From assembly GCA_049517435.1 (NCBI GenBank), contig JBEKRZ010000001.1, forward strand, positions 409-64,408: DNA of 64,000 nt. The letters are read 5' to 3'. Numbering within the stretch: position 1 is the stretch's first letter; each line of letters begins with the position of its first letter. The DNA comes from Smithella sp. Lineage in GTDB: Bacteria > Desulfobacterota > Syntrophia > Syntrophales > Smithellaceae. This document shows positions 28,961 through 46,957 of this stretch, piece by piece. The position numbers and the translations under genes were made by a program. The notes beneath the pieces are model-generated. The model was not told where the DNA came from. It searched no databases and worked only from the letters and a program-made list of their open reading frames with translations.

Positions 28961-29944
28961 CTACGCTCCATCTCCACGATGCCGTAAATCAATTTCTTGA
29001 TATTTATGAGAATCTCTGGTTTCCGCCTGCCGAAATCTGATATCCTCGAGCAGGGTCCTGTTGGAGGCCAGCAAATCCGCAACAAGCGCCACCATAATCG
29101 TCTGAAAGCCCATGCCCAAAAGAACCGACGCGAGGATCAGGGACTGGATATGGCCTCCGCCATAGCCTGTAAAATAATAGTAAAGGAATCTAACTCCCAC
29201 TAAAAACCCCAGGCCAAATAAAAGCAGGCCGATCGCGGTAAAGAAACGGAAAGGCCTGTAGAGGATAAAAATCCGGACAATCGTTGTAAACGATTTGAAT
29301 ATATAAACCGGCATACTTTTAATCAGGCGTGATGGTCGCAGGTCCTGATTAACACGCACCGGGATAGAAACGACCGACATGTTTTTTAGACCGGCTTGAA
29401 TGATTGTTTCGATGGTATACGTGTAATTATTGAATACAAGAAACTGCCTTGCCGCGTTTCTGCTAAACGCTCGAAAACCACTCGTCACGTCATCAACGCT
29501 TGTCCGGCTGACAATGCGAACCACCCAGCTTCCGACCTTCTGAAGAATTTTTTTCGGCAGCGAAAAATGACTGATACTGTCAATGGGACGAGCGCCCACA
29601 ACCAGATCGGCGCTTCCGTCCAAAACCGGCCGAGTCAAGGCGGGAATATCGTCTGCACAATATTGATTGTCCGCGTCCGTATTGACAATCACATCCGCAC
29701 CGAGCCGGATACATTCGCGTATTCCACGTGTAAAAGCTCCGGCCAGCCCCCGGTTGCGGGTATGCCTGACAATATAATCCACCCCCGCTTCCTTTGCCAC
29801 TCTCACGGTATCATCGGTGCTGCCGTCGTCAATGACCAGCCATTCCACCTTGTCGAAACCGGGAACAGACCGCGGCAAAGCAGCAAGAGTAATGGGCAAA
29901 GTTTCAGCCTCATTATAACAGGGAATTTGAATAATTAGCTTCAT
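28961..29944 (-). CDS. GT2 polyprenyl-phosphate glycosyltransferase (ArnC/GtrB/DPM1-like) with C-terminal TM helices.
   Basis: It has IQIPCYNEAETL, VIDDGSTDDT, NTDADNQY and two C-terminal TM helices. It is the last gene of the long minus-strand operon. Confidence 0.8.
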   Translation of the reverse strand: MKLIIQIPCYNEAETLPITLAALPRSVPGFDKVEWLVIDDGSTDDTVRVAKEAGVDYIVRHTRNRGLAGAFTRGIRECIRLGADVIVNTDADNQYCADDIPALTRPVLDGSADLVVGARPIDSISHFSLPKKILQKVGSWVVRIVSRTSVDDVTSGFRAFSRNAARQFLVFNNYTYTIETIIQAGLKNMSVVSIPVRVNQDLRPSRLIKSMPVYIFKSFTTIVRIFILYRPFRFFTAIGLLLFGLGFLVGVRFLYYYFTGYGGGHIQSLILASVLLGMGFQTIMVALVADLLASNRTLLEDIRFRQAETRDSHKYQEIDLRHRGDGA

Positions 29945-29971
29945 TATTTCTTCCTTTTCAAGCGATAAAAA

Positions 29972-31450
29972 TTATTTCAGGGAAGACACTTTTCTTCTTA
30001 TCCATACAAAAAAATTTCTCAGCCAGATTATTTCCTGAAGTGTCAGACATTTAAACCAATAACATATTAAAAGCAGGATTGCAAAAGATCCCAAAACAGA
30101 AACTACCGGACCAGCAAAACGCATAGCATAAAACACTAAAGCAGCGGAAACGACAGCTACACCAGGTTTTAGAAGAGCAGAGCGCAGATCAATCGCGATA
30201 TAATTGCGTAATAAAAACATAAAATAAAGGGCGGTCAGAGACATCGCCGCCGCCGCGCTTATTATCGCGCCTACAGCGTTATATCTAATCGCCGCTACTG
30301 AAATGGTTAGCGCAAAAGCAATTGCCCCAAGCAACGAGCCCAGAAATATTTGCAAGTCTTTTTTCCCCGCCTGCAATACGCTGTTTAAAACCTGACGCAT
30401 TGTAAACGGAATTATCAGCCACAATACCGGCCCAATCAAATTGCCGGCCTGAGCATAACGGGCTCCGAATATTTTAACTGTCAGCCAGGGAGCAAATGCT
30501 GTGCCCAACAAGGCCATCGAGCACCCAAACAGTACCGAAAAGCGAATCATCGTTTCCGCATAAACACGGTCTTTTCCATCTCTCCTGATTGCCGACCTGC
30601 TCAGGACTGGAATAGAGGCGCCGCTCAGGGCAAGCGGAATATTGGAAAGAACAAATAAAGCCTGCATGGCCAAAGCAAGTTGTCCAAGAACATCGCCGGA
30701 AGAAGCTACATGACGAAAAAATACTAAAGGCCCCTGATAGGGAATGGCCATCAAAAGCATGGAAACTCCCAGAGGGAATCCTTGCATAAAGATACGCCTC
30801 ATATCTTTGAGTTTAACATTCAGTCGTAAAACCAGTACACGGCGATTTATTATTATCAACCCGTAAACGGCATCACAACACCAGACGAATCCATGAACCG
30901 CAACCACCGGCAGAGCTTTCTTCCAGATAAAAATTACAACAAGACCGAGGGCGATTTCCAGAGAACGAAAAATTGCTTCTTGACGTAAGGAATATTGGTT
31001 GCATTCATAGGCGGTGTAAACACTTCCTGTCCAAGCAGACAGCGAACGGCCGATTAGCGCAAAAGCAAAAACAAGGACAATAGAACGGGACGCCGGGTCC
31101 GTCTCAAAAAACAGAGAAAGAATGATGTATGCGGCGGTTGTCACAATGATTGATGCAATACTAAGAGCCAGAGTAACCGTTGCCGTATGATCGCCTTTCT
31201 GTCGGCTTCTTCCGGCATCTCTGCTTAAAACTGTCGCCATGCCCATTTTGGTAAGGGGCAGAAACAACAAATACCAGGCTATCCCATAACTTATCATGCC
31301 GTAGATTTGAGGGCCCAAAACTCTTGCAATAATAATAATATAGAAAAAGCGCGTAATAAAATACACGCCTTGCCCGCTAAGCAGGTAGATTAAGTTTCTG
31401 GCTATGGAAGCGACGCCTCGGCCATCAATTGTGGGTGTTGATTTGGGCAA
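29972..31450 (-). CDS. Polysaccharide flippase (Wzx / MOP superfamily).
   Basis: It has about 12-14 TM segments, and its N-terminus (ARNLIYLLSGQGVYFITRFF) is typical of polysaccharide biosynthesis protein family members. Confidence 0.75.
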   Translation of the reverse strand: MPKSTPTIDGRGVASIARNLIYLLSGQGVYFITRFFYIIIIARVLGPQIYGMISYGIAWYLLFLPLTKMGMATVLSRDAGRSRQKGDHTATVTLALSIASIIVTTAAYIILSLFFETDPASRSIVLVFAFALIGRSLSAWTGSVYTAYECNQYSLRQEAIFRSLEIALGLVVIFIWKKALPVVAVHGFVWCCDAVYGLIIINRRVLVLRLNVKLKDMRRIFMQGFPLGVSMLLMAIPYQGPLVFFRHVASSGDVLGQLALAMQALFVLSNIPLALSGASIPVLSRSAIRRDGKDRVYAETMIRFSVLFGCSMALLGTAFAPWLTVKIFGARYAQAGNLIGPVLWLIIPFTMRQVLNSVLQAGKKDLQIFLGSLLGAIAFALTISVAAIRYNAVGAIISAAAAMSLTALYFMFLLRNYIAIDLRSALLKPGVAVVSAALVFYAMRFAGPVVSVLGSFAILLLICYWFKCLTLQEIIWLRNFFVWIRRKVSSLK

Positions 31451-31489
31451 TTAATATTATCCTTTTTTTACTAAAATCATGGAAGCCAT

Positions 31490-32410
31490 TCAATAATAGA
31501 TTCTGCCTGATAATTTTTTCAACTTATTAATCGTTTCTCCGGAAATACAACGTCGGCTGCGCATTGCCCGAGGCCACCCCGCCAGCGCGTCTTTAACACC
31601 TTGAATAAAATAAATCAGATGCCGATGTCGAAGTGACAAGATAAAATAATATCCCCACCATAAAAACGTATACGGAACAGCATATCGCCAGGGCAGGTTT
31701 CTCAAGGCAATCCAAAACCGGCTTCGCATGCCGAAATATATCCATTTCCCCTGAATCCTCGCCTGAGGCGTTTCATAATGAATAACGGATATCGCAGAGG
31801 AACGCAAAATTTTATATCCTTTGTCCAACATGCGATAACTGAAATCCAGTTCTTCACCGATAAAAAACAGATGCTCCCAGAACATCCCTATTTTCAAAAA
31901 AATCTCACGTTTGACAGCAAAACCGGCGCCGCAGAAATAACTACACTCATAATCTTCATTGATGATTTTTTTGTCCGCTCTGGGAATGCTTTTGTATTCT
32001 TCTAAACCATCGCTAGGCTTCACAATTCTAAAGGCAATACACCCCAAACTGCTATCGGATTGTAAATACGAAACCAACCGGTTAAGTACTTCCACGTCCG
32101 CAAAAATCGCGTCGTCATCAAGAAAAACGCAGAACTCTCCTGTGGACATCTGCACGCCGTAATTTCTTCCGCCCGGAACACCAAGATTCTTACTGAGATA
32201 AAAATATCGCACATAAGGAAACATGCTTTGAACCATATCTCCCGTTCCGTCAGTTGAAGCATTATCCACCACAATAATTTCATAATCAGCGAATTTCTGA
32301 AGGAGAATAGATTCCAGACATCTCCTTAAAAGCTCCTTTCGGTTCATAGTGACCAGTATTAAGCTGATCAGAGGTTTATTCTTAATGACTTCTTTTTTGC
32401 ACTTGTTCAT
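31490..32410 (-). CDS. Glycosyltransferase family 2.
   Basis: It has ISLILVTMNR, VVDNASTDGT and FLDDDA (DxD) motifs. Confidence 0.8.
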   Translation of the reverse strand: MNKCKKEVIKNKPLISLILVTMNRKELLRRCLESILLQKFADYEIIVVDNASTDGTGDMVQSMFPYVRYFYLSKNLGVPGGRNYGVQMSTGEFCVFLDDDAIFADVEVLNRLVSYLQSDSSLGCIAFRIVKPSDGLEEYKSIPRADKKIINEDYECSYFCGAGFAVKREIFLKIGMFWEHLFFIGEELDFSYRMLDKGYKILRSSAISVIHYETPQARIQGKWIYFGMRSRFWIALRNLPWRYAVPYTFLWWGYYFILSLRHRHLIYFIQGVKDALAGWPRAMRSRRCISGETINKLKKLSGRIYY

Positions 32411-32412
32411 AA

Positions 32413-33444
32413 TTAATAAAGCAAACGGATTTTTGATTTAAAACTTAATCGAACCGCACGTGCAAAAATAATTTGCAACCAGAGCAGTGATTCCGGCAGT
32501 GAAATAAAAAAACTTAAAACACGAAGTTTCCAATCATTTCTGTTTTTACGGATAAACTCCTTAAGGCGGGCGCTACAGAATTCTTTCAGAAGAACATTTC
32601 TTTCAGAAGTATCCTGACGGATCATGCAGCGCACCCATAAGACACTTGCGTAATAGGCATGTTGACCACCAATGATTCGGCGGTATTTTTCATCTTTTAC
32701 GAAATTTAGTGTGGACAAAATCTGCCCAAACGAACGTATTCTTTCTTGTGTACCGTGAATGGATTTATCCGTCTCTAGCGAGGCATGCCTGTAACGTCTG
32801 CAATAACCTTCAAAATGCATATAACCAACACGTTGAGCCCGAATCATACACATATAAAAGAAAAAGTAATCTTCACCGGTAAGAGAATCGCCAAACTTCA
32901 GATCGTTTTCAACGATAAATTCCCGGCGATATATTTTCATGCCCGGTTGTTGAATACGCCCGCCGGTGCGCCCTATCCAATAAAGTCCCGGAGCAATATG
33001 GTTTTCATCTTTCTCATCAAGATTAAAATAAAATTTATCATACCAACGCCTTATTTTACCGTCATCTTCAAACGATCTGCCGTTGAAGATGATTATATCG
33101 CCTGCATTGCGACATATTCGATTATACGCGGTCTTTACAACATCCGCCGTAAAAACGTCATCGGAATCAAGAAACATTATATGATCAGCCTTAGCCATCC
33201 GCATGGCATCGTTTCTGGCGGCCGACGCGCCTTGATTTGCCTTGTCCAGAATAATGATTCTGTCATCTTGCTCCGAATATCGTCGAATTATTTCGAGACT
33301 TCCATCTATTGAGCCGTCATTGACGACAATAATTTCCATCTCCGGGATTTCTTGATTGATAACGGAATCAAGACATTCGGCCAGATAGGCTGCCGTATTG
33401 TAAACAGGAATAATTACGCTGACCATTGGCATCGTTTTTTTCAT
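32413..33444 (-). CDS. Glycosyltransferase family 2.
   Basis: The start is re-set to the ATG at 33444 (MKKTMPMVSVIIPVYNTAAYLAECLDSV), which forms an ATGA overlap with the upstream gene's stop. It has VVNDGSIDGS and LDSDD motifs. The longer ORF-track N-terminus lies inside the upstream gene. Confidence 0.8.
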   Translation of the reverse strand: MKKTMPMVSVIIPVYNTAAYLAECLDSVINQEIPEMEIIVVNDGSIDGSLEIIRRYSEQDDRIIILDKANQGASAARNDAMRMAKADHIMFLDSDDVFTADVVKTAYNRICRNAGDIIIFNGRSFEDDGKIRRWYDKFYFNLDEKDENHIAPGLYWIGRTGGRIQQPGMKIYRREFIVENDLKFGDSLTGEDYFFFYMCMIRAQRVGYMHFEGYCRRYRHASLETDKSIHGTQERIRSFGQILSTLNFVKDEKYRRIIGGQHAYYASVLWVRCMIRQDTSERNVLLKEFCSARLKEFIRKNRNDWKLRVLSFFISLPESLLWLQIIFARAVRLSFKSKIRLLY

Positions 33445-34442
33445 ATCGCCTCTCCACGCCGGAAATTCAATGAAGAAATATACCCGGCCGCTCTGGCAAA
33501 ATGCATCGAAACGATCAGAGCAGGAACCAACATAACAAGAATCGCTCGTTTTTTCTTTATTGCTCCTATGACTCCAGTCATCAAAGCGGCCAAGATATAA
33601 AGAACGTATGTAAAACCAAAAATAATCTTTAAGTGGGGAAGTATCACGGACGCAACGCCCAGAATGGGAGCACCAACAAACACAGCTACCAAAGTTAAAT
33701 GAGGAGCGCGATGGATACCCATTTGCCTGCATATGCGCGCCATCGCCATGTTGCGTCTTACAAATGAAGCATATGTAGTGTCGCGGCTGTGCTCCACGCG
33801 CACGTGCGGCGCATACACCACTTTTCCCCCGCGTGCCTTGATCCTTTTCGCCAATTCGACATCCTCGTGAACAGAAATGGCCGGATTAAAAATCAACCCT
33901 CCACCCGAACCATCCAATGCCACTCTTTTCGCGGCGTCCGCTATAACAGTCATATTCCAGAGCTTGGGATAATAATCTCCCCATTTCATTCGACGGTCGG
34001 ACCGTGTCCCTCCTGTTCCCATCCATGAATTCAAGACTACATCGAGGGCAAGGTCAAATTCGGAAGCGCCATCCGTCAAAAAGTCCGATCCACCTAAAAT
34101 ATAAGCATCAGGATATTCCAGAAGAGATCTTTCAACGTTTATCAGCCAATCAGAAGGACAAACGCAGTCGTCGTCTGCAAACACCCATACCTGACCATTG
34201 GCTGAAGCGCAGGCGGCATTGAGAATTTCGGAACGATTACCGCCGCAATAAATGATTTGCCATCCCCGCCCGCCAAGGTCGGATTCGGCAATGCTTTTCA
34301 TCATTTCTTTTTGACCAGCGATAATCACCTCAAACCCTCCTCCAGGCGAATTGACATTGGTCAGTGACTTTACCGCTTTGGCAAGAAATTCCCCTCCGTG
34401 ACAAACTGGCACAATAACGCTGTATCTGGAAGGATTAATCAT
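33441..34442 (-). CDS. GT2-like glycosyltransferase with a C-terminal membrane domain.
   Basis: It has YSVIVPV, FADDDC (DxD) and a VHEDVEL motif, followed by three C-terminal TM helices. Confidence 0.7.
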   Translation of the reverse strand: MINPSRYSVIVPVCHGGEFLAKAVKSLTNVNSPGGGFEVIIAGQKEMMKSIAESDLGGRGWQIIYCGGNRSEILNAACASANGQVWVFADDDCVCPSDWLINVERSLLEYPDAYILGGSDFLTDGASEFDLALDVVLNSWMGTGGTRSDRRMKWGDYYPKLWNMTVIADAAKRVALDGSGGGLIFNPAISVHEDVELAKRIKARGGKVVYAPHVRVEHSRDTTYASFVRRNMAMARICRQMGIHRAPHLTLVAVFVGAPILGVASVILPHLKIIFGFTYVLYILAALMTGVIGAIKKKRAILVMLVPALIVSMHFARAAGYISSLNFRRGEAI

Positions 34443-35557
34443 TTAACTTTTCCAATAACCTGACGTTCCACATTGCAATCATCCACAACGCTGTTTTTAT
34501 AGGTGCAGTTACGGCATAAATAAAAATCATTATTGCCGAGATTAAAGGCTTTTCGAAAATCCATTCCTGCATGGCTCTTCCATGCTTTTAAAACGCCCAT
34601 TTCGTTTATATTGCCGAAGGAATGTTTATTAAGATAATCATATTCACAGGGAATCACTTCGCCCATAGCATCCAGCGTAACACGCTTCCAGGGACGCATA
34701 CAAACAAACTGTTTTTGTTTCCTTTGAAACGTATCCTTATAATATTCATATCTCCTGTAACTGTTTTTCTCAGGAGCGTAAATTTTATCCAGATCAGATC
34801 CCGTCTTTGGGTGCATATCCACTGTTTTAAGCGTAAAATAATCCACACCAAGTTTTTGCGCTAATTCGCGCGCCTGCGGAATTTCGGACTCATTATGACG
34901 CATGACAACAAAACGCATATTGACAACCGGAGAGAGAGCGCCTTTCAATGATCGGATGCGGATAATTTTTTGAATATTCGACAAAACAATATCCAGCCGT
35001 CCACTCTGCCGGTATTGTTCGTAAGTCTTTTGCGTGGCGCCGTCCACCGCAACAACCAGGGAATCAAGCCCTGAATCAACCAGCTCTTCTGTTTGCGCAT
35101 CATCAAGTGGGACATTACCGTTGGTGCTGGTGTGCACGATAATACCTTTTCTTTTCGCGTAAGCGATCATGCGGAACAAATCGGGATTAAGAAAAGGTTC
35201 TCCCCAATTCCAGAAGATAAGCTGCAGAAGATAATCACCGCATTCGTCAATGAACCGCTGGAATGTTTCGAAAGGCAAAAGGGCGGGAGGCCTTGATTTA
35301 TTCATGGACGAAGTCAAACAAATTGGACATTTCAAATTACAGTAATTGGCCGGCTCTACCTGTGCTATTACAGGATAACCAAGAGGGTGCGCGGGCAGAA
35401 GATACTGGTTAAGACCGGCAACGAAAAAATTAGCCGCTTTACCGGAACGAATTCCGCCAGCGCTGTAAGGCAGCATCTCGAATTCAAAATCAAATTTACC
35501 TTTCAGCAGCAGTGATGGTATTTGCGGCAGCACGTCACCTAGGTTAAATATTTTCAT
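34439..35557 (-). CDS. Radical SAM protein with a C-terminal SPASM-type auxiliary cluster domain.
   Basis: It has a CNLKCPIC (CX3CX2C) motif, a GEPFLNP glycine-rich SAM motif, and a C-terminal Cys set (CMRPW...CEYD...CRNC). Its stop and start overlap the neighbouring genes. Confidence 0.8.
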   Translation of the reverse strand: MKIFNLGDVLPQIPSLLLKGKFDFEFEMLPYSAGGIRSGKAANFFVAGLNQYLLPAHPLGYPVIAQVEPANYCNLKCPICLTSSMNKSRPPALLPFETFQRFIDECGDYLLQLIFWNWGEPFLNPDLFRMIAYAKRKGIIVHTSTNGNVPLDDAQTEELVDSGLDSLVVAVDGATQKTYEQYRQSGRLDIVLSNIQKIIRIRSLKGALSPVVNMRFVVMRHNESEIPQARELAQKLGVDYFTLKTVDMHPKTGSDLDKIYAPEKNSYRRYEYYKDTFQRKQKQFVCMRPWKRVTLDAMGEVIPCEYDYLNKHSFGNINEMGVLKAWKSHAGMDFRKAFNLGNNDFYLCRNCTYKNSVVDDCNVERQVIGKVK

Positions 35558-36510
35558 TTATTTTCTCTTTTGAGCCAGGAACTCAAGTCTCTGCCGATAT
35601 ATTCCTGCAGTTTTAAAATATCATCGCGATAGAACCGCCTGAGTTGTTGTTCAATTTCCGAGTCCATGGGCAGCGGTTTTTGCATATTCATGTCGCGAAT
35701 ACGATCTCGCAGGCGAATCCATTGATCCTCGCCTAATATCGCTTTGCCAATCAAGCGAACGACTTTGTGTAGCATAGTGGTTTTATTGAAAAAATTATTT
35801 AAAAGACTCCAGCGGGGAATGCTGGAAACATTGTGTCTGCGTTGTATATGCGGAACGAAGCCGGGATCAACGTCAAGAAACGCGTATAAGGATTGAATAA
35901 ACGTAATTGCATCGCGCATAAAGTCGTCGTATATAAAAACTTTTACCCGGCTGAAATTCTCCTGAAAAGCGCGTACCTGCTGAGCATACAAGCCACCTTC
36001 CCGATATTGCCATAAAAACGAGTATTTATCCCTCCTGCGTTGTTCCTCCGCAATCAAAGCATCCTTAAAGGACAGTTTTTCGCGTCCATCCCGCACCAAA
36101 TGATTATAGGCGGAATAGGCACGTTTAACCGGATTTCTTAGAATGATAATGATCCGGGGATCACCAAGATAGCTTTTAATGGCCGGTATGGTCCGTTCAA
36201 AATAGAAAATTGTGTCCACGCTGGCCTCGCCCACCGCTTTCTTGCCGGTGTTTATTTTAAACAGTCTAACATAATCATCAAATGAACCAACGCCTCCTAC
36301 ATATTTCTTAAGTCTAGGATCCTCGTCGCCTGGACCTTTGCCCGGATTAGCCGCGCGATTGCTAAAAAAACTCGGCTCCTTAACCGGACTCATGAATACA
36401 TCAGGATGCTGCTTGAGGTAGTAGTAAAGAGACGATGTTCCGCATTTGGCAGCTCCAACAATCAGGAAGTTAGGTAGAATCAATCCGTTTTGTTTTATTT
36501 TGCTACCCAA
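35554..36510 (-). CDS. PAPS-dependent sulfotransferase.
   Basis: It has a 5'-PSB loop (VGAAKCGTSSLYYYL) and a 3'-PB region (RNPVKRAYSAYNH), typical of the Sulfotransfer_1/3 families. Confidence 0.8.
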   Translation of the reverse strand: MGSKIKQNGLILPNFLIVGAAKCGTSSLYYYLKQHPDVFMSPVKEPSFFSNRAANPGKGPGDEDPRLKKYVGGVGSFDDYVRLFKINTGKKAVGEASVDTIFYFERTIPAIKSYLGDPRIIIILRNPVKRAYSAYNHLVRDGREKLSFKDALIAEEQRRRDKYSFLWQYREGGLYAQQVRAFQENFSRVKVFIYDDFMRDAITFIQSLYAFLDVDPGFVPHIQRRHNVSSIPRWSLLNNFFNKTTMLHKVVRLIGKAILGEDQWIRLRDRIRDMNMQKPLPMDSEIEQQLRRFYRDDILKLQEYIGRDLSSWLKRENK

Positions 36511-36633
36511 TAAAAATCACCTTTCTATTTTATACTTCGGCCGCTTCGGTAAGTCAGTGATATTCCACGTAGGATCGCAGACAACCTGTTGAAAATATTC
36601 CTATCACATATTAAGTTAGGATTCAGCCATTTT

Positions 36634-38562
36634 TTATTTATTCTCGATTAATCGGGAATATTTTTTGGGGATTAAGGAATTACTGATTAGAAACTCTTCC
36701 AGCATATCAACACATTTTTGCACGTCGTATTTTTCAGTATCGATGATTAATTCCGGCGCCTCGGGAATTTCGTAGGGCGAAGTCAGTCCCGTAAAATCTT
36801 TGATTAATCCTGAGTGCGCTTTTTCATACAATCCATTCGGATCACGCCGTTGGCATTCATCAATATTACAACGAACATGAATTTCAATGAATCTTCCCTC
36901 GGGGAAAAGACTTCTCACAAAACCCCTGTCTTGTTTAAATGGCGAGATAAACGTACACAGGACAATATTGCCTTGCTCGAAAAATAATTTCGCGACTTCC
37001 CCGGCCCGGCGAATGTTTTCTTTTCTATCCGAAACGGAAAAACCAAGATCAGAACAAAGGCCGTGCCGGACATTATCGCCGTCCAACAACGCTGTTCTGC
37101 CGTTTCGATTAAACAACCTTTTTTCCAGAGCCATCGCGATTGTTGATTTACCGGAACCGGATAAGCCTGTAAACCACAGCACTACAGCCTTATGAACATT
37201 TTGCCTCTCTCTTTCGGCAAGTTCTATATTTAATCCCCGCCATATCGTATGCGGTGAATTTTTAGTTTTAGCGCCAGCGGGTTGTTCTGTTTCCACGTAG
37301 TCTTCAATATTTCTGGCGACACCTCTAATCATTCCGGCGGCAACCGTGTTGTTGGTCAGAGGATCAATCAAAATAAAACTGCCGGTAGCATGGTTTAATT
37401 TATAAGGATCAAAGAAAATCGGCGTCAGAGTGTTTATCTCGACTCTGCCGATATCATTGAGTGAAAAATTATCGGTAGTCCGGCGGTGCAACGTATCGAC
37501 ATCTATCTTGTAAATTATCCTGGTAATATGAGCTTTGACGGATCTGGTCGTGTGTTTGAGAATATATGGTTCGGCCATGGTCATGGGTTTTTCATCCATC
37601 CAGCAAATCATGGCTTCCAGGCGATTTTCAATCTGAGGCAGATTTTTCTTCCGGACAATCATATCTCCCCGGCTGACATCAACCTCATCATTCAGGGATA
37701 GAACAACCGATTGCGGACAAAAGGCTTCCCGCGACTCACCTTCATAAGTCGTTATGGATTTGACGGAAGTCGATTTACCTGAAGGCAACACGACAACTTC
37801 CTCTCCAGGAGTGATAGTTCCCGAAACGATTTTCCCCGCGAAACCGCGAAAATCAAGGTGCGGACGGATGACATACTGAACAGGGAAACGAAAGTCCACC
37901 AGATTGCGGTCCGCCGTCACATGGATGTTTTCCAGATAGTGCAGCAGAGTCGTACCGTCATACCAGGGCATTTTCTTGCTCTTGACGACAGCATTATCCC
38001 CTTTGAGAGCGGATACGGGAATATAAACAATATCGTGAATATCAAGTTTCTGGGAAAATTTTTCATACTCTTCAACAATACGGTTGAAAACATCATTCGC
38101 GTAATCAACCAGATCCATTTTGTTCACCGCGACAATCAGATGCGGAATCTGCAAAAGAGAGATAATGAATCCGTGTCTCTTCGACTGAGTTAAAACGCCG
38201 TTGCGGGCGTCGATCAAAATAACGGCGCAATCAGCCTTGGAAGCGCCCGTCACCATGTTTCTGGTGTACTGCACATGGCCCGGAGTATCGGTAATGACAA
38301 ACTTCCTTTTGGGAGTTTCAAAATAACGGTAAGCAACGTCTATTGTAATGCCTTGTTCCCGCTCCGCCGTCAATCCGTCCAGAAGATAAGCCAGCTCAAT
38401 CTCTTTTAATCCCTTTTTCCTGGAAGTTTTTTCGATTGCCGCGAACTGGTCATCATAGATGGATTTTGTTTCATATAACAATCTGCCAATCAGGGTTGAC
38501 TTGCCGTCATCAACACTGCCGGTGGTGGTAAAGCGCAGCAAAGATTTTTCGCTCGAATACAC
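36634..38562 (-). CDS. cysNC: Bifunctional sulfate adenylyltransferase subunit 1 / adenylylsulfate (APS) kinase.
   Basis: The GTPase motifs are GSVDDGKSTLIGRLL, DTPGH and NKMD. The C-terminal APS kinase has a P-loop (FTGLSGSGKST). Confidence 0.92.
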   Translation of the reverse strand: MYSSEKSLLRFTTTGSVDDGKSTLIGRLLYETKSIYDDQFAAIEKTSRKKGLKEIELAYLLDGLTAEREQGITIDVAYRYFETPKRKFVITDTPGHVQYTRNMVTGASKADCAVILIDARNGVLTQSKRHGFIISLLQIPHLIVAVNKMDLVDYANDVFNRIVEEYEKFSQKLDIHDIVYIPVSALKGDNAVVKSKKMPWYDGTTLLHYLENIHVTADRNLVDFRFPVQYVIRPHLDFRGFAGKIVSGTITPGEEVVVLPSGKSTSVKSITTYEGESREAFCPQSVVLSLNDEVDVSRGDMIVRKKNLPQIENRLEAMICWMDEKPMTMAEPYILKHTTRSVKAHITRIIYKIDVDTLHRRTTDNFSLNDIGRVEINTLTPIFFDPYKLNHATGSFILIDPLTNNTVAAGMIRGVARNIEDYVETEQPAGAKTKNSPHTIWRGLNIELAERERQNVHKAVVLWFTGLSGSGKSTIAMALEKRLFNRNGRTALLDGDNVRHGLCSDLGFSVSDRKENIRRAGEVAKLFFEQGNIVLCTFISPFKQDRGFVRSLFPEGRFIEIHVRCNIDECQRRDPNGLYEKAHSGLIKDFTGLTSPYEIPEAPELIIDTEKYDVQKCVDMLEEFLISNSLIPKKYSRLIENK

Positions 38563-39464
38563 TAGAAATATCCTTCCTTCTTTTTCTGCTCCATGGAACT
38601 GTCAGAGGTCAAGTCAATCACACGGTTTTCTCTTTCCGATTTTTTCGCGGATCCGACTTCGCCGATAATTTCATCAATTGTCGTCGCAGATGAAGAGATG
38701 GCTCCCGTGCAGGGAATGCATCCCAGAGAGCGGAAACGGCATAAAACTGTTTTTACTTTTTTTCTATCACCGGCAAAATCTCTTCCAACGGGAATGAGAA
38801 TGCCTTTTTGCATAATTACTTTCCGCTGAAGAGCGAAATAAATCGGCACAACAGGAATCTGCTCCAGTTTGATATATTCCCAGATATCCCTCTCCGTCCA
38901 GTTGCTCAGGGGAAAAACACGTATGGTCTCTCCCTCATTGATGCGGGTGTTATATATATCCCAGAGCTCAGGCCGCTGATTCTTCGGATCCCACTGCCCA
39001 AAAGAATCCCGCAATGAAAAAACCCTTTCCTTGGCGCGGGATTTTTCCTCTTCCCTTCTTGCCCCGCCGAAGGCGGCGTCAAATCCGTACTTTCTGAGAG
39101 CATCCAGAAGAGCGCCTGTTTTTAGATAACTGCAGCATTTGTCCACGCCGCTTTTTTGTGGATGACAGCCCTGGGCAATCCACTCCTCATTTCTTTCCAC
39201 AATCAGGCGTGCTCCGATTTTGCGGCATAATTCTTCACGGAATTTATACATCTCCGGGAATTTGTAACCGGTATCAATGTGCATCAAAGGGAAAGAGAAT
39301 TTGCCAGGATAAAAAGCTTTCTGAGCCAGGCGCACCATCACGCTGGAATCCTTGCCCACCGAATACAGCATCACCGGATTTTTAAACTCGGCGGCAACTT
39401 CGCGCATGATGTGGATGGATTCCGATTCTAATTGCTTCAAATATGATAGATTGAAAGAAGTCAT
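38562..39464 (-). CDS. cysD: Sulfate adenylyltransferase subunit 2.
   Basis: It has a PAPS-reductase/ATP-PPase fold ([12 protein letters not shown]) and a C-terminal ...[12 protein letters not shown]. There is a one-nt overlap with the cysNC start. Confidence 0.92.
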
Positions 39465-39506
39465 GTATATCCTATGCCGTTACTTATTGATAACTCTTAT
39501 CCCCGA

Positions 39507-40262
39507 TTATCTAATCCACACCTTATAGATGACCCACAAGCCTTCAATCAAAACCAGTACACCCAAGCCTTTTTTCAGAATTTCTTTAGAGCCTATTTTA
39601 CTTAAAGCCATCGGACCGAAAAAACCGCCAACCGCTGATCCCACACACAGAGGAACAATTAAAGAAATCGATGGTGTGCCATTGAGCAGCAACCAGAGCA
39701 AAAAACTTAAGAGACAGATAGGAGCTTCAGCAAAGTCCGTCGATCCTATCGCGCCTTTTTCCGACCTGTCTTTGAAAACAAGCTGACCTCCGGCAACGAG
39801 CGGCCCGAATCCGCCACCCGATAAAGCTTTATTAAACGCGCTGATAAAACCGAGGGCGTATATTTTTTTTGATGTCATGATTAATGTTTTCCCCGATAGA
39901 ATCATTAACGCGATTACAATAACCAAAATGGCAATGTATGTATTCAGAATTTTCGGCGAGATCGATATGGAAATAAAGACACCGATAACGCAGGCAAATA
40001 CACCAAACCATATAAGTGTAGTGGTCACGTGATAATCAATTGTGCCTGTTTGAAAATTGGCGTTTTTTAACTGGTGATGTCTATATGATGCCACAAAACC
40101 GCCGGCAGCTTGAGAAATTAATATGGCCGGAACGACACTTTTAACATCATATCCGATAAGAATCAAAAAAGGTGAAAGGACTGTTCCATACATCATGCCC
40201 AATGCGCTATCTACAAATTCCATGACCATCGCAAAAATAACTAAGTAAAATGATTCCATCAA
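39507..40262 (-). CDS. TauE/SafE (DUF81) family anion permease, a putative sulfate/sulfite transporter.
   Basis: It has about 7-8 TM segments in a duplicated 4-TM pattern with glycine-rich motifs (ALGMMYGTVLSPFL; LSGGGFGPLVAGG). It lies directly upstream of cysD. Confidence 0.6.
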   Translation of the reverse strand: MMESFYLVIFAMVMEFVDSALGMMYGTVLSPFLILIGYDVKSVVPAILISQAAGGFVASYRHHQLKNANFQTGTIDYHVTTTLIWFGVFACVIGVFISISISPKILNTYIAILVIVIALMILSGKTLIMTSKKIYALGFISAFNKALSGGGFGPLVAGGQLVFKDRSEKGAIGSTDFAEAPICLLSFLLWLLLNGTPSISLIVPLCVGSAVGGFFGPMALSKIGSKEILKKGLGVLVLIEGLWVIYKVWIR

Positions 40263-41022
40263 TATGAAACCTCCTTGGATATAAGATCGTTTTTATCGTG
40301 CCTTTCGATAGAAACCGGGTAAAGCATCATCCGTTAAATGGAAGAGCCGCAGGCTAAATCCCGGATCACAGCATGCGTCTTCATGATCGCAGAAAAGATC
40401 CTGATTCATTCTTTTCGCCATATCAACCGACCAGTAACAAAAAGGCGGCCATACACTAAAAAAAAATATAATACTTTGGAAAAGGTGGAAAATAATATCA
40501 CAAGAAGTGGTTTTTCGCGAGGCGCAAAAATTATTTCGTTTATTTTCATATAGATCAATATTCCCCCGCAAAAATTTAGTTGTTATTTTGTTATCCTGTT
40601 TCACTCAGCTCTTCAGCCGGATAACAGCCATATTATGGCAGTATTCCTTCTTAAGTTTTCCGGAACTCGTCACTCCATAGGAATAACAATAAGCTGCCAT
40701 TTTAAATGATAAAGGAAAAAGTCAGGAGTGCTTCAAAGAAAATATCAGCCGATAAAAATTCTTGGATAACTGCATGGCAATACCTCCTTGAAAAAATTGT
40801 TAAGAAAATTTCAATATTGCAACTTCACTTTTTCCGATAACCTAAATAACCTTAATACCCTGAAGGGCACCATGGGGTCACGTAGAGTCTCACATGAGTT
40901 GAAGACATAATAGCACTATTTATTTTTCTAAAAAATACACAGTATCATTTATCAAGGGAAGAAGTGCTTGTTGACTTCACTTGCAAGTCAGCAGAAGCAG
41001 TGCGATCAATGGTTACCCATTA

Positions 41023-41901
41023 CTAATCGAAATATGCGATAGATTCTCTACCAATTTGGTATCCGCACTGCCTGCAAATTGGCAGGATGAACATACCTCT
41101 TGAGACCTGCTTGCGGATATTATTAAAGCTTGACGATTCCCAAATCTCCTGAAGAGAATTTGTAATAAGACTGCCCATCACGTACTCTTCTAGTCCGTCG
41201 TGACAACAGAGTATGACGTTGCCATTTGATTTTACAACGCAGGTGTAGATTTTATCGCAGGGGGAATATTTTTTTATTACTCCAATATTATTTTTAAGTT
41301 CTTCTTTTCCTCTGCTCCAAAGAGCGAAATTCCGATAATCATCTCGCATATCTATTAATTCCATAGCTGAATATTCAGAGGCAATTTGAGCCAGTTCCAG
41401 CGCTTTCTTGTCTGAAGTGGGTTCATGAATGCTCACCATTATTTTATCCATACCAGCGGCGATAAGTTGTGACATTATCTTTTTTGTCAACAGATCACCG
41501 TTGGAAAAGATGACGACCGGGCAGTTCGGTAGATAATTTTTTACGAATTTAATAAATTCGCAGAGTCGCTTATCTAACAGAGGTTCATTATAGCTGTGAA
41601 GGGAAATCCTTCCTTTAAATCCCCAAGCTTTTAGGCTGAAGATGATACTCTGGAAAAGCTCTTCTGTCATAATTACACCTTGATTTAGCCGGGAGCAGTA
41701 CCAGCAGTGCCTATTACAGCGCCAGTCGGTCTCAATATTGATTGCTACCGGCAGATCACGACCATCATATAACCTCAAACGTATATAACGATTTTGTAGA
41801 ACTCGTCTAAGGTTATTTATGCTAGTTCTATATTTCTCTGGTAGGAATCTAAAAACCAGACGCTTAATAAATATTAATATTTTCATATCTATTTGACCCA
41901 C
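41023..41901 (-). CDS. Radical SAM protein with a Cys-rich (SPASM/twitch-like) C-terminus.
   Basis: It has a CNRHCWYC (CX3CX2C) motif and C-terminal cysteines (CDKIYTCVV...LCCHD...CRQCG). Its start overlaps the upstream radical SAM gene by 13 nt. Confidence 0.75.
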   Translation of the reverse strand: MGQIDMKILIFIKRLVFRFLPEKYRTSINNLRRVLQNRYIRLRLYDGRDLPVAINIETDWRCNRHCWYCSRLNQGVIMTEELFQSIIFSLKAWGFKGRISLHSYNEPLLDKRLCEFIKFVKNYLPNCPVVIFSNGDLLTKKIMSQLIAAGMDKIMVSIHEPTSDKKALELAQIASEYSAMELIDMRDDYRNFALWSRGKEELKNNIGVIKKYSPCDKIYTCVVKSNGNVILCCHDGLEEYVMGSLITNSLQEIWESSSFNNIRKQVSRGMFILPICRQCGYQIGRESIAYFD

Positions 41902-42794
41902 TCACTGATTTCCTGTTTGGAGCGTTCCCACTTATGACCAAATGATCGATTTCTTACATCGCAGTAGCGGCAAAATGGCTTTGGACAGATCAAAAAATTG
42001 AAAATTTCCGATGCTTTTTCCACACGATAAATATCCAGAAAATCCCCACTTTCGAGTTTCATGTTCGTTCCAAACCTCTTATTGAAATGACAAACATTCG
42101 GCGCAACAACGCATGCATAAAATTTCCCCTCCATCAACAATGGAAAAGTATTGACCTGAAAACATTCGATGAAGCTCTTTCTCGAATCTTGATGCCCCTC
42201 AATGTCCAGAGGGTTTTTGTAAGAATCTCTAGGAAAATTTTCGGTACCTTTATAATGCTCAAATATAACACCATGCGCCGCTGCGGTTTTCTTCATGGCT
42301 TTGTAATCTAAATTGATAGGGTATTTAGTATTAACAATGACGATATTTTGTTCGCGGCATATCCGCCAAAAATCTTCGTCTTGCCGGAGCAATAGAAGTC
42401 CGTTTGTTACAAGATGTATCAATGTTCCGGGAAAGAACAACCGTGTAGAAATCAATATTTCTTTTAGTTGCGGGTGTAGTAAAGGTTCGCCACCCATAAC
42501 TCCGATACGTGCAACATCTCCTTTCAGTATTTTTGACATTTGGGCAAGGTCTTTTTTTATGTCATCCAATGAAACAAATCTCTCATCTGCAATCGCGGCA
42601 AAATGCTCGCAACCTTTGCATTTAAGATTGCAATGGTCAAGAATGTTCAAAACAAAATATGACAGATGTTTTTGTGGTGTAAGGCGCTGTTTTGCGGTCT
42701 TTTTTAAATATACCTGTCGATATGTCATTTTGGAAACCAGTTTATGACTCAGAAAAAAACCGTCCAAAAATTGTCGCACCTTATGCTTGAACAT
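41889..42794 (-). CDS. Radical SAM protein.
   Basis: It has CNLKCKGC (CX3CX2C), GGEPLLHP, and a C-terminal CPKPFCRYC. Confidence 0.75.
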   Translation of the reverse strand: MFKHKVRQFLDGFFLSHKLVSKMTYRQVYLKKTAKQRLTPQKHLSYFVLNILDHCNLKCKGCEHFAAIADERFVSLDDIKKDLAQMSKILKGDVARIGVMGGEPLLHPQLKEILISTRLFFPGTLIHLVTNGLLLLRQDEDFWRICREQNIVIVNTKYPINLDYKAMKKTAAAHGVIFEHYKGTENFPRDSYKNPLDIEGHQDSRKSFIECFQVNTFPLLMEGKFYACVVAPNVCHFNKRFGTNMKLESGDFLDIYRVEKASEIFNFLICPKPFCRYCDVRNRSFGHKWERSKQEISEWVK

Positions 42795-42885
42795 AATGAC
42801 CTCTCGCTGGCGATTGACAAATAGCTTCCAATGTTGATTGTATTCCTTGTATAGCTGATACCTGTTATTTCTATGTACGAGTTTA

Positions 42886-43857
42886 TTATCCGCTTATATT
42901 TTTTAATAATTTTTTTCTTATTTTGCCCATGGCGAATTTAAAACCATTATTACGCCAGTATTGGAAAAAACCATATGATATTTTTGTCAAACTATGTGAA
43001 TCTATAAATCTTCGTAATTTTAAAGATTTTCGTTTTAATTTGTGAAGTCTAAACGGCGACTTTTTGAAATACTCATCCCATTCACGGACAAAATCACTGT
43101 CAAAATAAATCCAAGGCTTTTCATAGCTGGCCAAATGGATAATGCATGAAGCTTCTTTTATATTATCCCAAGATGAATAATTTGTTCCAAAATACTTGTT
43201 TATATAATCAAGAGTATACCCACCTCTATAATACATAAGAATATTATAACAACAATTATATATTATCGGCAATAATCTAACTTTCTTATCAAACACGATA
43301 TTGAAACAATCTTGATCCATAAAAGTCAATTTTTCCGCTGATTTGCGGTTATTAAACAATGCCATTGATGTATTGTTTTTCCTCATCAATTTAAGATTTA
43401 ACAGCATTACTCCGGAATTAAAATAATCTTTAATATGAAGATCATTATCAACCATTCCGATATCTTTGATCACTCCCGCATAATAATCATCGATGTCTGC
43501 TTCAAACAGATCGCTTAAGTCTTTTTGTATTATGACATCACCATCTAAATACAGCACTTTATCCTGATGGGGAATCAAATCCGGTAAATCAAATTTAAAA
43601 CAAGACGTAGAAGTAATGTGAATAAATTTAGGTATGTCTTCAAACTTTTTCAAAGATACTTTAATTATATGAATATCGGCTTTGCTTTCTCTGAATTCAT
43701 AGAACTTTTCTATTTCCATTTCTGATAAATCAGCGGCTATTATATAAATATCATAATATGTATCAGGATTCTTATTGCAAATCAAAGAAGTGATAGCAAC
43801 AACTGTCGGTATTACGTAATGGCTGTCGCAAATAAAAGCTACCGGAACCATTGTCAA
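42886..43857 (-). CDS. Glycosyltransferase family 8 (LPS/glycogenin-type retaining GT).
   Basis: It has an N-terminal VAFICDSHYVIPTVVAITS, a YLDGDVII (DxD) motif and FNSGVMLLN. It is the first gene of the minus-strand operon. Confidence 0.8.
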   Translation of the reverse strand: MTMVPVAFICDSHYVIPTVVAITSLICNKNPDTYYDIYIIAADLSEMEIEKFYEFRESKADIHIIKVSLKKFEDIPKFIHITSTSCFKFDLPDLIPHQDKVLYLDGDVIIQKDLSDLFEADIDDYYAGVIKDIGMVDNDLHIKDYFNSGVMLLNLKLMRKNNTSMALFNNRKSAEKLTFMDQDCFNIVFDKKVRLLPIIYNCCYNILMYYRGGYTLDYINKYFGTNYSSWDNIKEASCIIHLASYEKPWIYFDSDFVREWDEYFKKSPFRLHKLKRKSLKLRRFIDSHSLTKISYGFFQYWRNNGFKFAMGKIRKKLLKNISG

Positions 43858-45854: not shown

Positions 45855-46951
45855 ATAGTATGACACAGGAAAATTTGAGTGACGTTGCCTTGGAAAAAGA
45901 ACTTCTGGATATCTGGCGACGTGCGCTCAAGAATGAAAATTTGACTATCGATGACGACTTTTTTGAGTGCGGCGGGGATTCATTGCTCGCCATACAAGTG
46001 TTCCTGGAGACCGAGCAGCTCACAGGGAAATCATTGGCGAAATCAATAATATTCGAAACGGGCACTGTGCGGGTGTTGTTAAAGAAAATTATGTCAGCGG
46101 ATAAAATTAAGCCTCAGGTTTCCGTCCGAATAGGTTCTGTAAATGGAAAAATAATTCATTTTTTCCATGGCGACTTTGAATTTGGAGGAGTTTTCATTAA
46201 AGCTTTCTCCAAAATGCTTGGCAGCGATTACCTTATCCATGCGATAGCTCCCCATTTACCTCATGAAGGTAATATGCCGGACTCAATAGAAGATATGGCT
46301 AAAGAAAGATTGCCCAATATTATTGAAAAACAGCCTGATGGGCCGTATATGATACTTGGACACTGCAACGGGGCGCTGGTCGCATTTGAAACGGCAAGAC
46401 AACTTATTTTAATAGATAAGGAAGTAAAAGCCGTGGTAATGATCGATCCGGTAATAATGTCAGTCAGGAAGTCCGCACAGTTCATTTTTATAATCGCAGA
46501 CCTCTTTATGCGTCTGATGGGTTTTCATAAAAGCAAGCGTAACAAGCGCCTGATCTGGATCTGGAGAAAAATGGTAGGCTTGGATGGACTGACTAAAGAT
46601 AGCTGGTGTCGCGCTCTTTCCTTCTGTCAGGAGACCTGGCCTCAGAAACGAACATCGCTAAAAAAAATTCTGGAGTATATTGGCAACCACATCAATAACA
46701 AAGAACCCGACCATAAATCCGAAGAACAAAAAAATATAGACCAGCATTACAGAAATGTTTTATTAAACTATAGAACCCTTCAGCTGGACGTACCCGTGTT
46801 ATACATTTCTTTGGAATTTAGCGGATATGCGTGGCGGCGGATTGCCAGGAATACTGTTTATATTAATATATGCCGTGGAAAACACGACTTTTGGAATGAA
46901 GAATATTCACAAGACCTGTTCAATAAAATAAAGGATTTTATAAACCGCTGA
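45851..46951 (+). CDS. Carrier protein (PCP/ACP) fused to an alpha/beta-hydrolase thioesterase with a Cys nucleophile.
   Basis: The start is re-set to the ATG at 45851, giving an ATGA overlap with the ligase stop. It has a phosphopantetheine site FFECGGDSLLAIQV, a nucleophile elbow ILGHCNGALVA (Cys codon 46364-46366), and later Asp (VVMIDP) and His (RGKHDF) candidates. Confidence 0.8.
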   Translation: MNSMTQENLSDVALEKELLDIWRRALKNENLTIDDDFFECGGDSLLAIQVFLETEQLTGKSLAKSIIFETGTVRVLLKKIMSADKIKPQVSVRIGSVNGKIIHFFHGDFEFGGVFIKAFSKMLGSDYLIHAIAPHLPHEGNMPDSIEDMAKERLPNIIEKQPDGPYMILGHCNGALVAFETARQLILIDKEVKAVVMIDPVIMSVRKSAQFIFIIADLFMRLMGFHKSKRNKRLIWIWRKMVGLDGLTKDSWCRALSFCQETWPQKRTSLKKILEYIGNHINNKEPDHKSEEQKNIDQHYRNVLLNYRTLQLDVPVLYISLEFSGYAWRRIARNTVYINICRGKHDFWNEEYSQDLFNKIKDFINR

Positions 46952-46957
46952 TATATT

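Follow-up and report, generated by a model that had tools for sequence, protein, structure and literature searches.

In rhizobia, additional dedicated copies of cysD, cysN and cysC (NodP/NodQ) supply 3'-phosphoadenosine 5'-phosphosulfate (PAPS) to a carbohydrate sulfotransferase, NodH or LpsS, which acts on Nod factor or lipopolysaccharide (LPS). In the synechan (xss) cluster of Synechocystis PCC 6803, sulfotransferases are reportedly part of a Wzx-type cluster, and sulfate is said to be added to the repeat unit before export. The locus for the sulfated capsular polysaccharide of Vibrio sp. KMM 8419 has second copies of cysC, cysN and cysD inside the cluster, and PAPS genes together with sulfotransferases in a polysaccharide cluster are a published hallmark of sulfated polysaccharide synthesis (PMC11641403). 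Sulfated polysaccharide loci are also described from Synechocystis (PMC8205485), Cobetia marina KMM 1449 (PMC11766843) and, putatively, from Pontiella (PMC7356697). The locus analysed here lies on a 26.4-kb genomic island of a Smithella sp., within a window of 64,000 nt (the whole stretch of DNA analysed, contig JBEKRZ010000001.1; positions below refer to it unless another contig is named). The island probably encodes both the building of a sulfated glycoconjugate of the cell surface and a sulfate-donor supply of its own; an LPS-linked glycan, or another one built on a lipid carrier, is the most likely product. Because the Vibrio study reports cysC, cysN and cysD copies in its cluster, the pathway is considered to be of a known type, and its host in this case is an anaerobic syntroph that is uncultured. 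What is new is a widespread module of a sulfotransferase, a radical S-adenosylmethionine (SAM) enzyme with SPASM domain (rSAM/SPASM) and a family 2 glycosyltransferase (GT2).

The Vibrio locus resembles the island in having cysN, cysD and cysC with sulfotransferases and glycosyltransferases in one cluster. Unlike the island, it has Kps-type export by an ATP-binding cassette (ABC) transporter and belongs to aerobic marine Gammaproteobacteria; the term radical SAM is absent from the paper, and the structure of the Vibrio product is solved, whereas the island is known from its genes. The rhizobial system differs in its acceptor, a lipochitooligosaccharide or existing LPS, and is not known to include a radical SAM enzyme, a flippase or a step by a glycosyltransferase of the GT-C fold. 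The synechan cluster comes from an oxygenic phototroph, has reportedly been validated genetically and is said to have no radical SAM partner. A first-pass annotation of the window had known of no described system that joins sulfate activation and transfer with three radical SAM enzymes and an Arn-like periplasmic step. This view stands for one part only, as PAPS genes with sulfotransferases in a polysaccharide cluster are published, while no paper was found on the radical SAM combination. The searchable literature holds no description of a sulfotransferase paired with rSAM/SPASM in polysaccharide clusters or of GT2-SPASM-cupin proteins, and the search returned nothing relevant on the structures PDB 3RNL and 7WZV/7WZX/7X0B or on sulfotransferases and sulfate assimilation in Smithella.

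The main cluster is an unbroken series of open reading frames (ORFs) on the minus strand from 43857 to 28961. In this direction it comprises a GT8 glycosyltransferase, two radical SAM enzymes designated rSAM301 and rSAM292, a TauE permease, cysD, cysNC, the sulfotransferase, the rSAM/SPASM enzyme of 372 aa, three GT2 genes (GT2_c, GT2_b and GT2_a), a flippase of the Wzx type and a polyprenol-phosphate-type GT2 (Table 1). The run, its gene overlaps and the 760-nt gap had been described in the first-pass annotation and all agree with the ORF map, and each of the gene calls was confirmed by Pfam and NCBIfam; the Pfam scan of the window covered most ORFs of at least 120 aa. The number of glycosyltransferases, given as six, has to be corrected to five in this range, with two GT-C (PMT_2) genes just outside it. 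The start of GT2_b at 33444 agrees with the position where its GT2 domain and the PRK10073 alignment begin.

That the locus would be private to this genome and absent from relatives was rejected, as two related Smithella contigs, L085 (2.4 Mb) and L087 (255 kb), carry the same locus in the same gene order with 72-91% protein and about 80-85% DNA identity. Their order is O-methyltransferase, carrier-thioesterase and FadD-like genes divergent from GT8, then rSAM301, an anion transporter, cysD, cysNC, sulfotransferase, rSAM/SPASM, glycosyltransferases, Wzx, polyprenol-phosphate GT2 and a convergent PMT_2 gene. Three cassettes are different. The window has the additional BtrN-like rSAM292, TauE in place of a four-gene Pst-like ABC transporter, and two GT2 genes in place of one GT4. 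Such block-wise replacement of cassettes is typical of surface-polysaccharide loci.

Synthesis of a sulfated glycoconjugate is the best reading of the locus because CysD and CysNC pass the cut-offs of their models, the sulfotransferase has the relevant motifs and kinship, and no PAPS reductase was found in the window. CysNC, in which the GTPase subunit of ATP sulfurylase is fused to the kinase for adenosine 5'-phosphosulfate (APS), holds the P-loop GLSGSGKST. Among the scanned ORFs of the window only CysD matches PAPS_reduct, and tblastn with CysD revealed no paralogue there, so the missing PAPS reductase of the first-pass annotation was borne out within the window. Its sulfotransferase call withstood the profile search, and its self-contained unit of sulfate activation and PAPS-type sulfotransferase in a glycan cluster is supported in that the enzymes were verified and the cysD-cysNC-sulfotransferase-rSAM block is conserved in related Smithella.

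In the sulfotransferase, the 5'-phosphosulfate-binding (5'-PSB) loop GAAKCGTSS aligns with the loop of the heparan sulfate (HS) 3-O-sulfotransferase (3-OST) 3-OST-3A; in 14 homologues G19, G24, T25 and S27 are invariant and T26 nearly so. The 3'-phosphate-binding (3'-PB) motif RNPVKRAYS, with R125, P127, R130 and S133 invariant in the same homologues, aligns with RDPVTRAIS of 3-OST-3A, and the segment KEPSFF, with K44, E45 and P46 invariant, aligns with AEPHFF. The Glu of the E-P-x-F-F segment is the catalytic base in HS 3-O-sulfotransferases. The nearest solved structure is 3RNL, a bacterial sulfotransferase under a generic PDB name (E 3.7e-66), followed by HS 3-O- and N-sulfotransferases (3-OST and N-deacetylase/N-sulfotransferase, NDST). 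No tyrosylprotein sulfotransferase was among the matches of this PDB sequence search. Since the motifs are shared with HS sulfotransferases and these are the nearest solved relatives next to 3RNL, a carbohydrate acceptor is the most economical reading.

The cysD-cysNC pair stands among glycan genes in four independent contexts, namely the window, L085/L087, the more distant Smithellaceae contig L086 and the contig L001. On L086, the pair belongs to a polysaccharide/LPS cluster with genes for Bac_transf, GT2, epimerases and a GT9 heptosyltransferase, with no sulfotransferase within 10 kb. On L001, the pair is accompanied by two sulfotransferases, Wzx and a Wzt-type exporter. No PAPS or sulfite reductase adjoins cysDNC within 10 kb on L085, L087, L086 and L001 or in the window. 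The metagenome contigs L109 and L114 have four sulfotransferase paralogues in a span of about 3 kb, none more than 5 kb from the cysD-cysNC pair that comes after them. These cysD and cysNC genes are 51-58% identical to those of the window and represent an independent linkage of PAPS genes with multiple sulfotransferases.

The 372-aa rSAM/SPASM enzyme has the CX3CX2C motif with C73, C77 and C80 invariant in 18 aligned sequences. Five C-terminal cysteines are invariant (C286, C304, C348, C351 and C361), compared with seven in the full SPASM motif, and they could hold one auxiliary cluster or a partly ligated second. In sequence comparison with PDB entries, the BtrN alignment pairs the C-terminal domain of the enzyme with the auxiliary-cluster domain, and the BlsE alignment covers the core. 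The AlphaFold2 model (predicted local distance difference test, pLDDT, 84; predicted TM-score, pTM, 0.88) has its best Foldseek matches in BlsE and DesII. Identity with BtrN, DesII and BlsE is only 15-19%, with TM-scores of about 0.5-0.6, and these enzymes act on aminocyclitol or nucleoside-sugar antibiotic precursors, whereas the island is without aminotransferase or antibiotic genes. Identity of the 372-aa protein as an anaerobic sulfatase-maturating enzyme (anSME) was considered and rejected, as no sulfatase domain was found among the island ORFs and no anSME among the 25 best NCBIfam matches; anSMEcpe has rank 16 in the fold search.

At E <= 1e-30, an exhaustive profile-free search for this family yielded 1,187 cluster representatives, and among the best 150 relatives there are seventeen of more than 600 aa. 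Ten of the long relatives were tested, and eight are GT2-rSAM/SPASM fusions of 668-1511 aa with one to three GT2 domains (P0387, P0389, P0396, P0399, P0402, P0405, P0411 and P0436), six of them also with Cupin_2. Their rSAM/SPASM domain is 34-38% identical to the window enzyme. The fusions to GT2 and cupin domains, together with the gene neighbourhoods, argue that the family belongs in glycan assembly and not on a peptide substrate. Cupins include sugar epimerases and ketoisomerases, which hints at a keto-sugar intermediate in the chemistry of the family. With its many members, the family makes up a large group of uncharacterised radical enzymes that probably modify sugars.

Neighbourhoods of the rSAM/SPASM relatives were compared at 79 loci from species-representative genomes, all metagenome-assembled genomes (MAGs), of a dozen or so phylum-level lineages. 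A sulfotransferase gene is located directly upstream on the same strand in 25 of the 38 assessable orthologues (at least 50% identity), and the full sulfotransferase-rSAM-GT2 triad is present in 11 of those 25 loci. In the exceptions, a GT4, Wzy, acetyltransferase, GT-C or second rSAM copy is found there instead. The gene 3' of rSAM is a GT2 in 45/74 loci, and otherwise a methyltransferase, a GFO/IDH/MocA oxidoreductase, a pyruvyl transferase or a GT4. Metagenomic sulfotransferases of at least 70% identity have rSAM directly downstream wherever downstream sequence is available. Two short metagenomic contigs (69-71% sulfotransferases) have only a distant rSAM relative, upstream, and no metagenomic sulfotransferase of 48% identity or less is directly followed by rSAM.

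In other genomes the module is part of clusters with Wzx, Wzy, Wzt-type ABC exporters and LPS heptosyltransferases. In a Desulfosarcinaceae MAG (L169, 9055-12141, 1.58-Mb contig) sulfotransferase, rSAM/SPASM and GT2 stand alone between sensor-kinase genes. On an Abyssobacteria contig the module belongs to a compact cluster that also has a second sulfotransferase, GT21-like GT2s and an LPG_synthase_TM protein and lacks Wzx. Orthologues of GT2_c are directly downstream of rSAM in L002, L009 and L010. In the best reading, the three genes form a portable tailoring module present in many anaerobic phyla. On the 6.4-kb contig of the Smithella MAG L009, two tandem rSAM/SPASM paralogues precede the GT2_c orthologue (2979-5203), and no sulfotransferase was detected on that contig.

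A more specific proposal is tentative and on the doubtful side. The sulfotransferase, rSAM/SPASM and GT2 might be an undescribed glycan-tailoring module in which a sugar is reworked by radical chemistry, for example by anaerobic oxidation to a keto-sugar or by epimerisation, with the cupins handling the keto intermediate in the fused relatives and with the residue also O- or N-sulfated. By analogy with animal glycosaminoglycan synthesis, where an epimerase step is paired with a sulfotransferase step, the sulfotransferase/rSAM pair could be a bacterial counterpart that does not depend on oxygen. Sulfated glycoconjugates were measured chemically in anaerobic and aerobic granular sludge and are abundant in the anaerobic one (PMC10483923; see also PMC7356697). 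According to the authors, neither the producers and their bacterial pathways nor the genes and sulfotransferases involved are known (PMC10483923). Anaerobic habitats of this kind have yielded Smithella and its relatives, which are syntrophs, and the locus gives candidate genes, a donor-supply unit and a minimal three-gene module. If the proposal is true, some of the sulfated, glycosaminoglycan-like polymers measured in anaerobic granular sludge (PMC10483923) could come from the module, since it is spread over a dozen or so anaerobic lineages. Should the main reading be wrong, the locus would amount to a variable surface-polysaccharide region of the ordinary kind that happens to adjoin sulfate-activation genes.

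In the proposed pathway, the TauE-type permease would import sulfate. CysD and CysN would convert it to APS and the fused CysC kinase would produce PAPS, a step strongly indicated by homology. The soluble carbohydrate-type sulfotransferase would then put sulfate on a sugar hydroxyl or amine in the cytoplasm, and would have to do so before export because PAPS is confined to the cytoplasm. The translationally coupled rSAM/SPASM enzyme may take a hydrogen atom from a carbon of the same nucleotide- or lipid-linked sugar and oxidise, epimerise or otherwise rework the residue. The adjoining GT2 would install the modified residue, and the other GT2s and GT8 would build the remainder. The lipid-linked product would be flipped by Wzx, and the polyprenol-phosphate GT2 and the GT-C may add a further sugar in the periplasm, as their family pairing suggests.

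Several observations weigh against this pathway. The host is uncultured, and the pathway is known here from genes alone. An initiating phosphoglycosyltransferase, Wzy and a chain-length regulator were not found among the scanned ORFs of the island and window, and other parts of the genome may hold them. The annotation of the TauE family is that of a sulfite or sulfonate exporter, and the transporter that TauE replaces scores in relatives as phosphate-type PstSCAB. The cysDNC genes may also serve assimilation, the reductase search having covered the window and four related contexts. In the fold search, the peptide-modifying SuiB and SkfB match the rSAM/SPASM model almost as well as the sugar enzymes do. 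Adjacency of sulfotransferase and rSAM is frequent and not universal (66%), and 0/38 genome loci retrieved via the rSAM enzyme carry cysNC within 10 kb. By this last count, the physical linkage of donor supply and transferase is lineage-specific.

An unlikely alternative, and the one that survives best, is that the product is a sulfated acyl-glycolipid, loosely like mycobacterial sulfolipid-1. GT2_c would glycosylate a membrane lipid, the sulfotransferase would sulfate the sugar, and an acyl or aryl group would come from the FadD-like ligase and carrier-thioesterase. The genes for these two and for the O-methyltransferase are indeed inside the island and colinear in L085/L087, and GT2_c is membrane-anchored with weak similarity to GT21 (ceramide glucosyltransferase). 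The Wzx-less Abyssobacteria cluster with its GT21-like GT2s and LPG_synthase_TM protein, and the island itself with no initiating transferase or Wzy, would also suit a lipid product. A glycolipid fits poorly, however, with the Wzx, polyprenol-phosphate GT2 and GT-C enzymes, which are present and conserved, and with the export and heptosyltransferase genes that accompany the module elsewhere; moreover, no PapA-type acyltransferase was detected.

It is still less probable that tauE-cysD-cysNC is a general sulfate activation unit, for assimilation or for all cellular PAPS, which merely stands beside the glycan genes. CysNC is 71-88% identical across Smithellaceae/Syntrophaceae matches, as expected for vertical inheritance, the unit has its own conserved promoter-like region, and neither L086 nor most of the sulfotransferase-rSAM module loci combine nearby cysNC with a sulfotransferase. 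Against this, the fused APS kinase produces PAPS, no PAPS or sulfite reductase lies beside cysDNC in the four related contexts or the window, the genes occur within glycan clusters in three independent contexts, and in the window no more than 123 nt separate cysNC from the sulfotransferase gene, both being on one strand.

Maturation of a sulfated, ribosome-made and post-translationally modified peptide (RiPP) by the sulfotransferase and rSAM/SPASM, comparable to RaxX/RaxST with a SPASM maturase and with the glycosyltransferases as unrelated neighbours, is highly improbable: SPASM enzymes are typically peptide maturases, SuiB, SkfB, CteB and anSME are among the good Foldseek matches and Pfam Sulfotransfer_3 alone does not define the acceptor class, but no conserved small ORF is found beside the pair, nor a peptidase or exporter, rSAM is translationally coupled on both flanks to sulfotransferase and GT2 by 4-nt overlaps, its neighbours at 74 loci are glycan genes (GT2, GT4, methyltransferase, pyruvyl transferase and Wzy), its relatives are fused to GT2 and cupin domains, the solved relatives of the sulfotransferase are carbohydrate sulfotransferases, and only about 60 aa are N-terminal to the rSAM core, in a comparison made with no dedicated profile search for the RiPP recognition element (RRE).

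For the sulfated-glycan pathway, the transporter slot upstream of cysD is of interest. A Pst-family ABC transporter is directly upstream of cysD in L085/L087 (5367-9097), L086 (5496-9073) and L004 (20050 onward). PstC and PstA of the relatives score above the cut-offs, and PstS and PstB below, the binding protein well below. From its gene position only, the TauE permease is taken as a putative sulfate importer. The sequence of the Pst-type transporter does not identify it as a sulfate transporter. That it and TauE fill one slot immediately upstream of cysD hints at a shared role and no more, and the Pst-like system may have been recruited for sulfate in Smithellaceae, which would be unusual if confirmed.

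The 760-nt gap upstream of TauE has a promoter-like element (-35/extended -10-like) at about 40494-40520. Some 180 nt of non-coding DNA located upstream of the transporter slot (40384-40562, minus strand) match positions 5256-5431 of L085 (blastn block, 73% identity), and the element is also recognisable in L086 at about 5400-5500 in a three-way alignment. The leader is about 230 nt long, and no Rfam family matched; as a conserved leader it could be regulatory for PAPS synthesis. Because this promoter-like upstream DNA is conserved, the PAPS genes probably start their own transcription unit, and the cluster would consist of at least two units and not of the single operon assumed before. A tblastn match to the Pst-type transporter in the gap (E 1.6e-8) was rejected as a transporter remnant; it is conserved non-coding DNA of the upstream region, translated through a stop codon in the match, and not a pseudogene. 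The Rfam scan of the window detected three tRNAs only, with no riboswitch or leader family in the gaps, and counts from a consensus promoter/terminator scan were barely above the shuffled expectation and are not informative alone.

The proposal that the cluster lies on an island is well founded. A tRNA-Cys gene, a direct repeat of its 3' part 26.4 kb away and a recombinase remnant beside the tRNA give the signature of a tRNA-integrated island. The repeated part is the 3' 45 nt of tRNA-Cys, beginning in the anticodon loop. The remnant of about 35 aa, for which the ORF list has a 57-aa frame at 25620-25793, includes the RY(S)H box and was detected when two integrases of the window served as tblastn queries (E 0.005 and 0.012, 2.2-kb target); beside the tRNA-Cys of the island only this fragment and no intact integrase is present. 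The G+C content of the island is 0.421, with 0.40-0.41 in the flanks, and the mean G+C at third codon positions (GC3) is 0.435 vs 0.397, so its composition is near that of the flanks. Decay of the integrase and a composition that is not atypical suggest that the acquisition was old or within the lineage. The left flank has the housekeeping genes dapAB, folK, tal, pgsA, tRNA-Gly and tRNA-Cys, and the right flank carD, a PIN-TRAM protein gene, ispDF and gltX. The nearest relatives of every gene are in Smithella, Smithellaceae or Syntrophaceae MAGs, and a CysNC identical to that of the window is on deposit as a protein of a Smithella sp. MAG (276-kb contig). The tRNA and the direct repeat were not found in the 22-kb loci of L085/L087. 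Beyond the main cluster, the island contains the convergent GT-C, the divergent FadD-like set, a GT-C protein with C-terminal TPR (GT-C-TPR) and the right repeat.

Table 1. Features of the Smithella sp. island, with positions in the 64,000-nt window
Feature	Position	Strand	Evidence and remarks
tRNA-Cys (GCA)	25566..25641	+	ARAGORN + Rfam
Left direct-repeat copy	25597-25646		3' part of tRNA-Cys, anticodon loop onward (repeat family D2)
Tyrosine recombinase C-terminus remnant (ELLGHKTLTMTLRYSHL...)	25722..25829	-	adjoins tRNA-Cys
GT-C (PMT_2), convergent with cluster	26904..28568	+	Pfam 51.5 bits; at least 7 hydrophobic segments; 78% identical orthologue, same position in L085/L087
Polyprenol-phosphate-type GT2 (AglJ/PpgS/GtrB/ArnC-like)	28961..29944	-	Pfam GT2 79.6 bits; two C-terminal membrane helices
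Wzx-type flippase	29972..31450	-	Polysacc_synt 67.6 vs 28.2 bits; ~12 hydrophobic segments
GT2_a, soluble	31490..32410	-	Pfam 105.5 bits; 75% identical orthologue in L085
GT2_b	32413..33444	-	Pfam 127.4 bits; PRK10073-like 131.9 bits, below cut-off; cassette absent from L085
GT2_c / GT2_b	33441/33444		4-nt overlap if GT2_b start = 33444
GT2_c, membrane-anchored	33441..34442	-	Pfam; 3 C-terminal hydrophobic segments; weak GT21 similarity; third module member
rSAM-SPASM / GT2_c	34439/34442		4-nt overlap
rSAM/SPASM, 372 aa, soluble	34439..35557	-	Radical_SAM 55.5 vs 29.5; SPASM 44.3 vs 21.5 bits
Sulfotransferase / rSAM-SPASM	35554/35557		4-nt overlap
PAPS-dependent sulfotransferase	35554..36510	-	Sulfotransfer_3 55.9 vs 27 bits; soluble (no hydrophobic segments)
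CysN-CysC fusion (ATP sulfurylase GTPase subunit + APS kinase)	36634..38562	-	PRK05506 900.7 vs 715 bits
cysD / cysNC	38562		1-nt overlap
CysD, ATP sulfurylase small subunit	38562..39464	-	NCBIfam PRK05253 446.2 vs cut-off 195; TIGR02039 438.9 vs 396.6 bits
TauE/SafE (TSUP) anion permease	39507..40262	-	Pfam 69.3 bits; ~8 hydrophobic segments
Non-coding gap between rSAM292 and TauE	40263-41022	-	760 nt
rSAM292, BtrN-like radical SAM dehydrogenase homologue (radical SAM/SPASM)	41023..41901	-	PDB 4M7T/4M7S BtrN E 1.2e-26, full length
rSAM301 / rSAM292	41889/41901		13-nt overlap
rSAM301, no SPASM match	41889..42794	-	Pfam 47.2 bits; PDB 7WZV E 1.2e-9; BlsE E 7.5e-6
GT8 (LPS alpha-1,3-galactosyltransferase-like)	42886..43857	-	Pfam 124.6 bits; PRK15171 65.9 bits, below cut-off
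Divergent set: FadD-like acyl-AMP/CoA ligase, carrier protein-thioesterase, O-methyltransferase, 137-aa protein, zinc-dependent alcohol dehydrogenase (Zn-ADH)	44331..49509	+	Pfam, NCBIfam
Second GT-C-like membrane protein + C-terminal TPR	49878..51785	+	weak PMT_2 match
Right direct-repeat copy	52020-52069	+	48/50 nt identical to left copy

The polyprenol-phosphate-type GT2 has NCBIfam scores of 113.6 vs 325 bits for AglJ, 69 bits for PpgS and 36.5 vs 529 bits for ArnC, all below the equivalog cut-offs. It had been called ArnC-like with an Arn-like periplasmic step; the step is backed by the adjacent conserved GT-C, and orthology to ArnC is not. An Arn pathway was rejected on the ArnC score, with the GT-Cs matching general PMT_2 only and no ArnA, ArnB or ArnD domains found. 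In the GtrB/GtrC, ArnC/ArnT and archaeal AglJ pairs, a GT2 with two C-terminal helices likewise stands beside a multi-spanning PMT_2 GT-C, and the pair is kept in the relatives. Two such helices are typical of GT2 enzymes of the GtrB/ArnC/DPM type. Unlike the GtrB/GtrC and Arn pairs, the island is without a GtrA-type small flippase, ArnA, ArnB and ArnD, and no equivalog cut-off is reached. The conserved pairing supports a periplasmic decoration step, in which the convergent GT-C would be a periplasmic transferase using a polyprenol-phosphate sugar.

Neither rSAM301 nor rSAM292 has hydrophobic segments. The orthologue of rSAM301 in L085 is 77% identical, and its best PDB match, 7WZV, is a radical SAM structure under a generic iron-sulfur name only. 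The divergent set is colinear in L085 with 82% DNA identity and, from conserved adjacency only, is presumably linked to the glycan. The best match of its Zn-ADH (48388-49509) is scyllo-inosose 3-dehydrogenase, below the cut-off. BtrN is an inosamine dehydrogenase, and rSAM292 together with the Zn-ADH would hint at oxidation chemistry on a cyclitol, keto-sugar or secondary alcohol. The GT8 gene has a G+C content of 0.30 (GC3 0.28), compared with about 0.42 in the island, and yet its protein is 82% identical in L085; because of this low G+C content it may be of separate origin.

A 52-nt repeat with 79% identity was found at 36598-36649 and 43911-43962, just upstream of the sulfotransferase and GT8 starts. 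It holds the exact 15-nt core CTAACTTAATATGTG (minus strand) and may represent a promoter or operator shared by the two genes. Its reading as a regulatory element conserved among relatives was rejected, the core being present only in sequences of this organism and not in related loci. Another repeat, of 58 nt (83% identity), brackets the GT-C-TPR gene at 49567-49624 and 51813-51870, which suggests that this gene could be a separately inserted or duplicated cassette in the island. At the left edge of the window, an ORF for a phage-type integrase of 388 aa (677-1843, plus strand) abuts and overlaps tRNA-Met (1786-1862, minus strand), and this pair at 677-1862 may be the border of a second integrated element located mostly outside the window.

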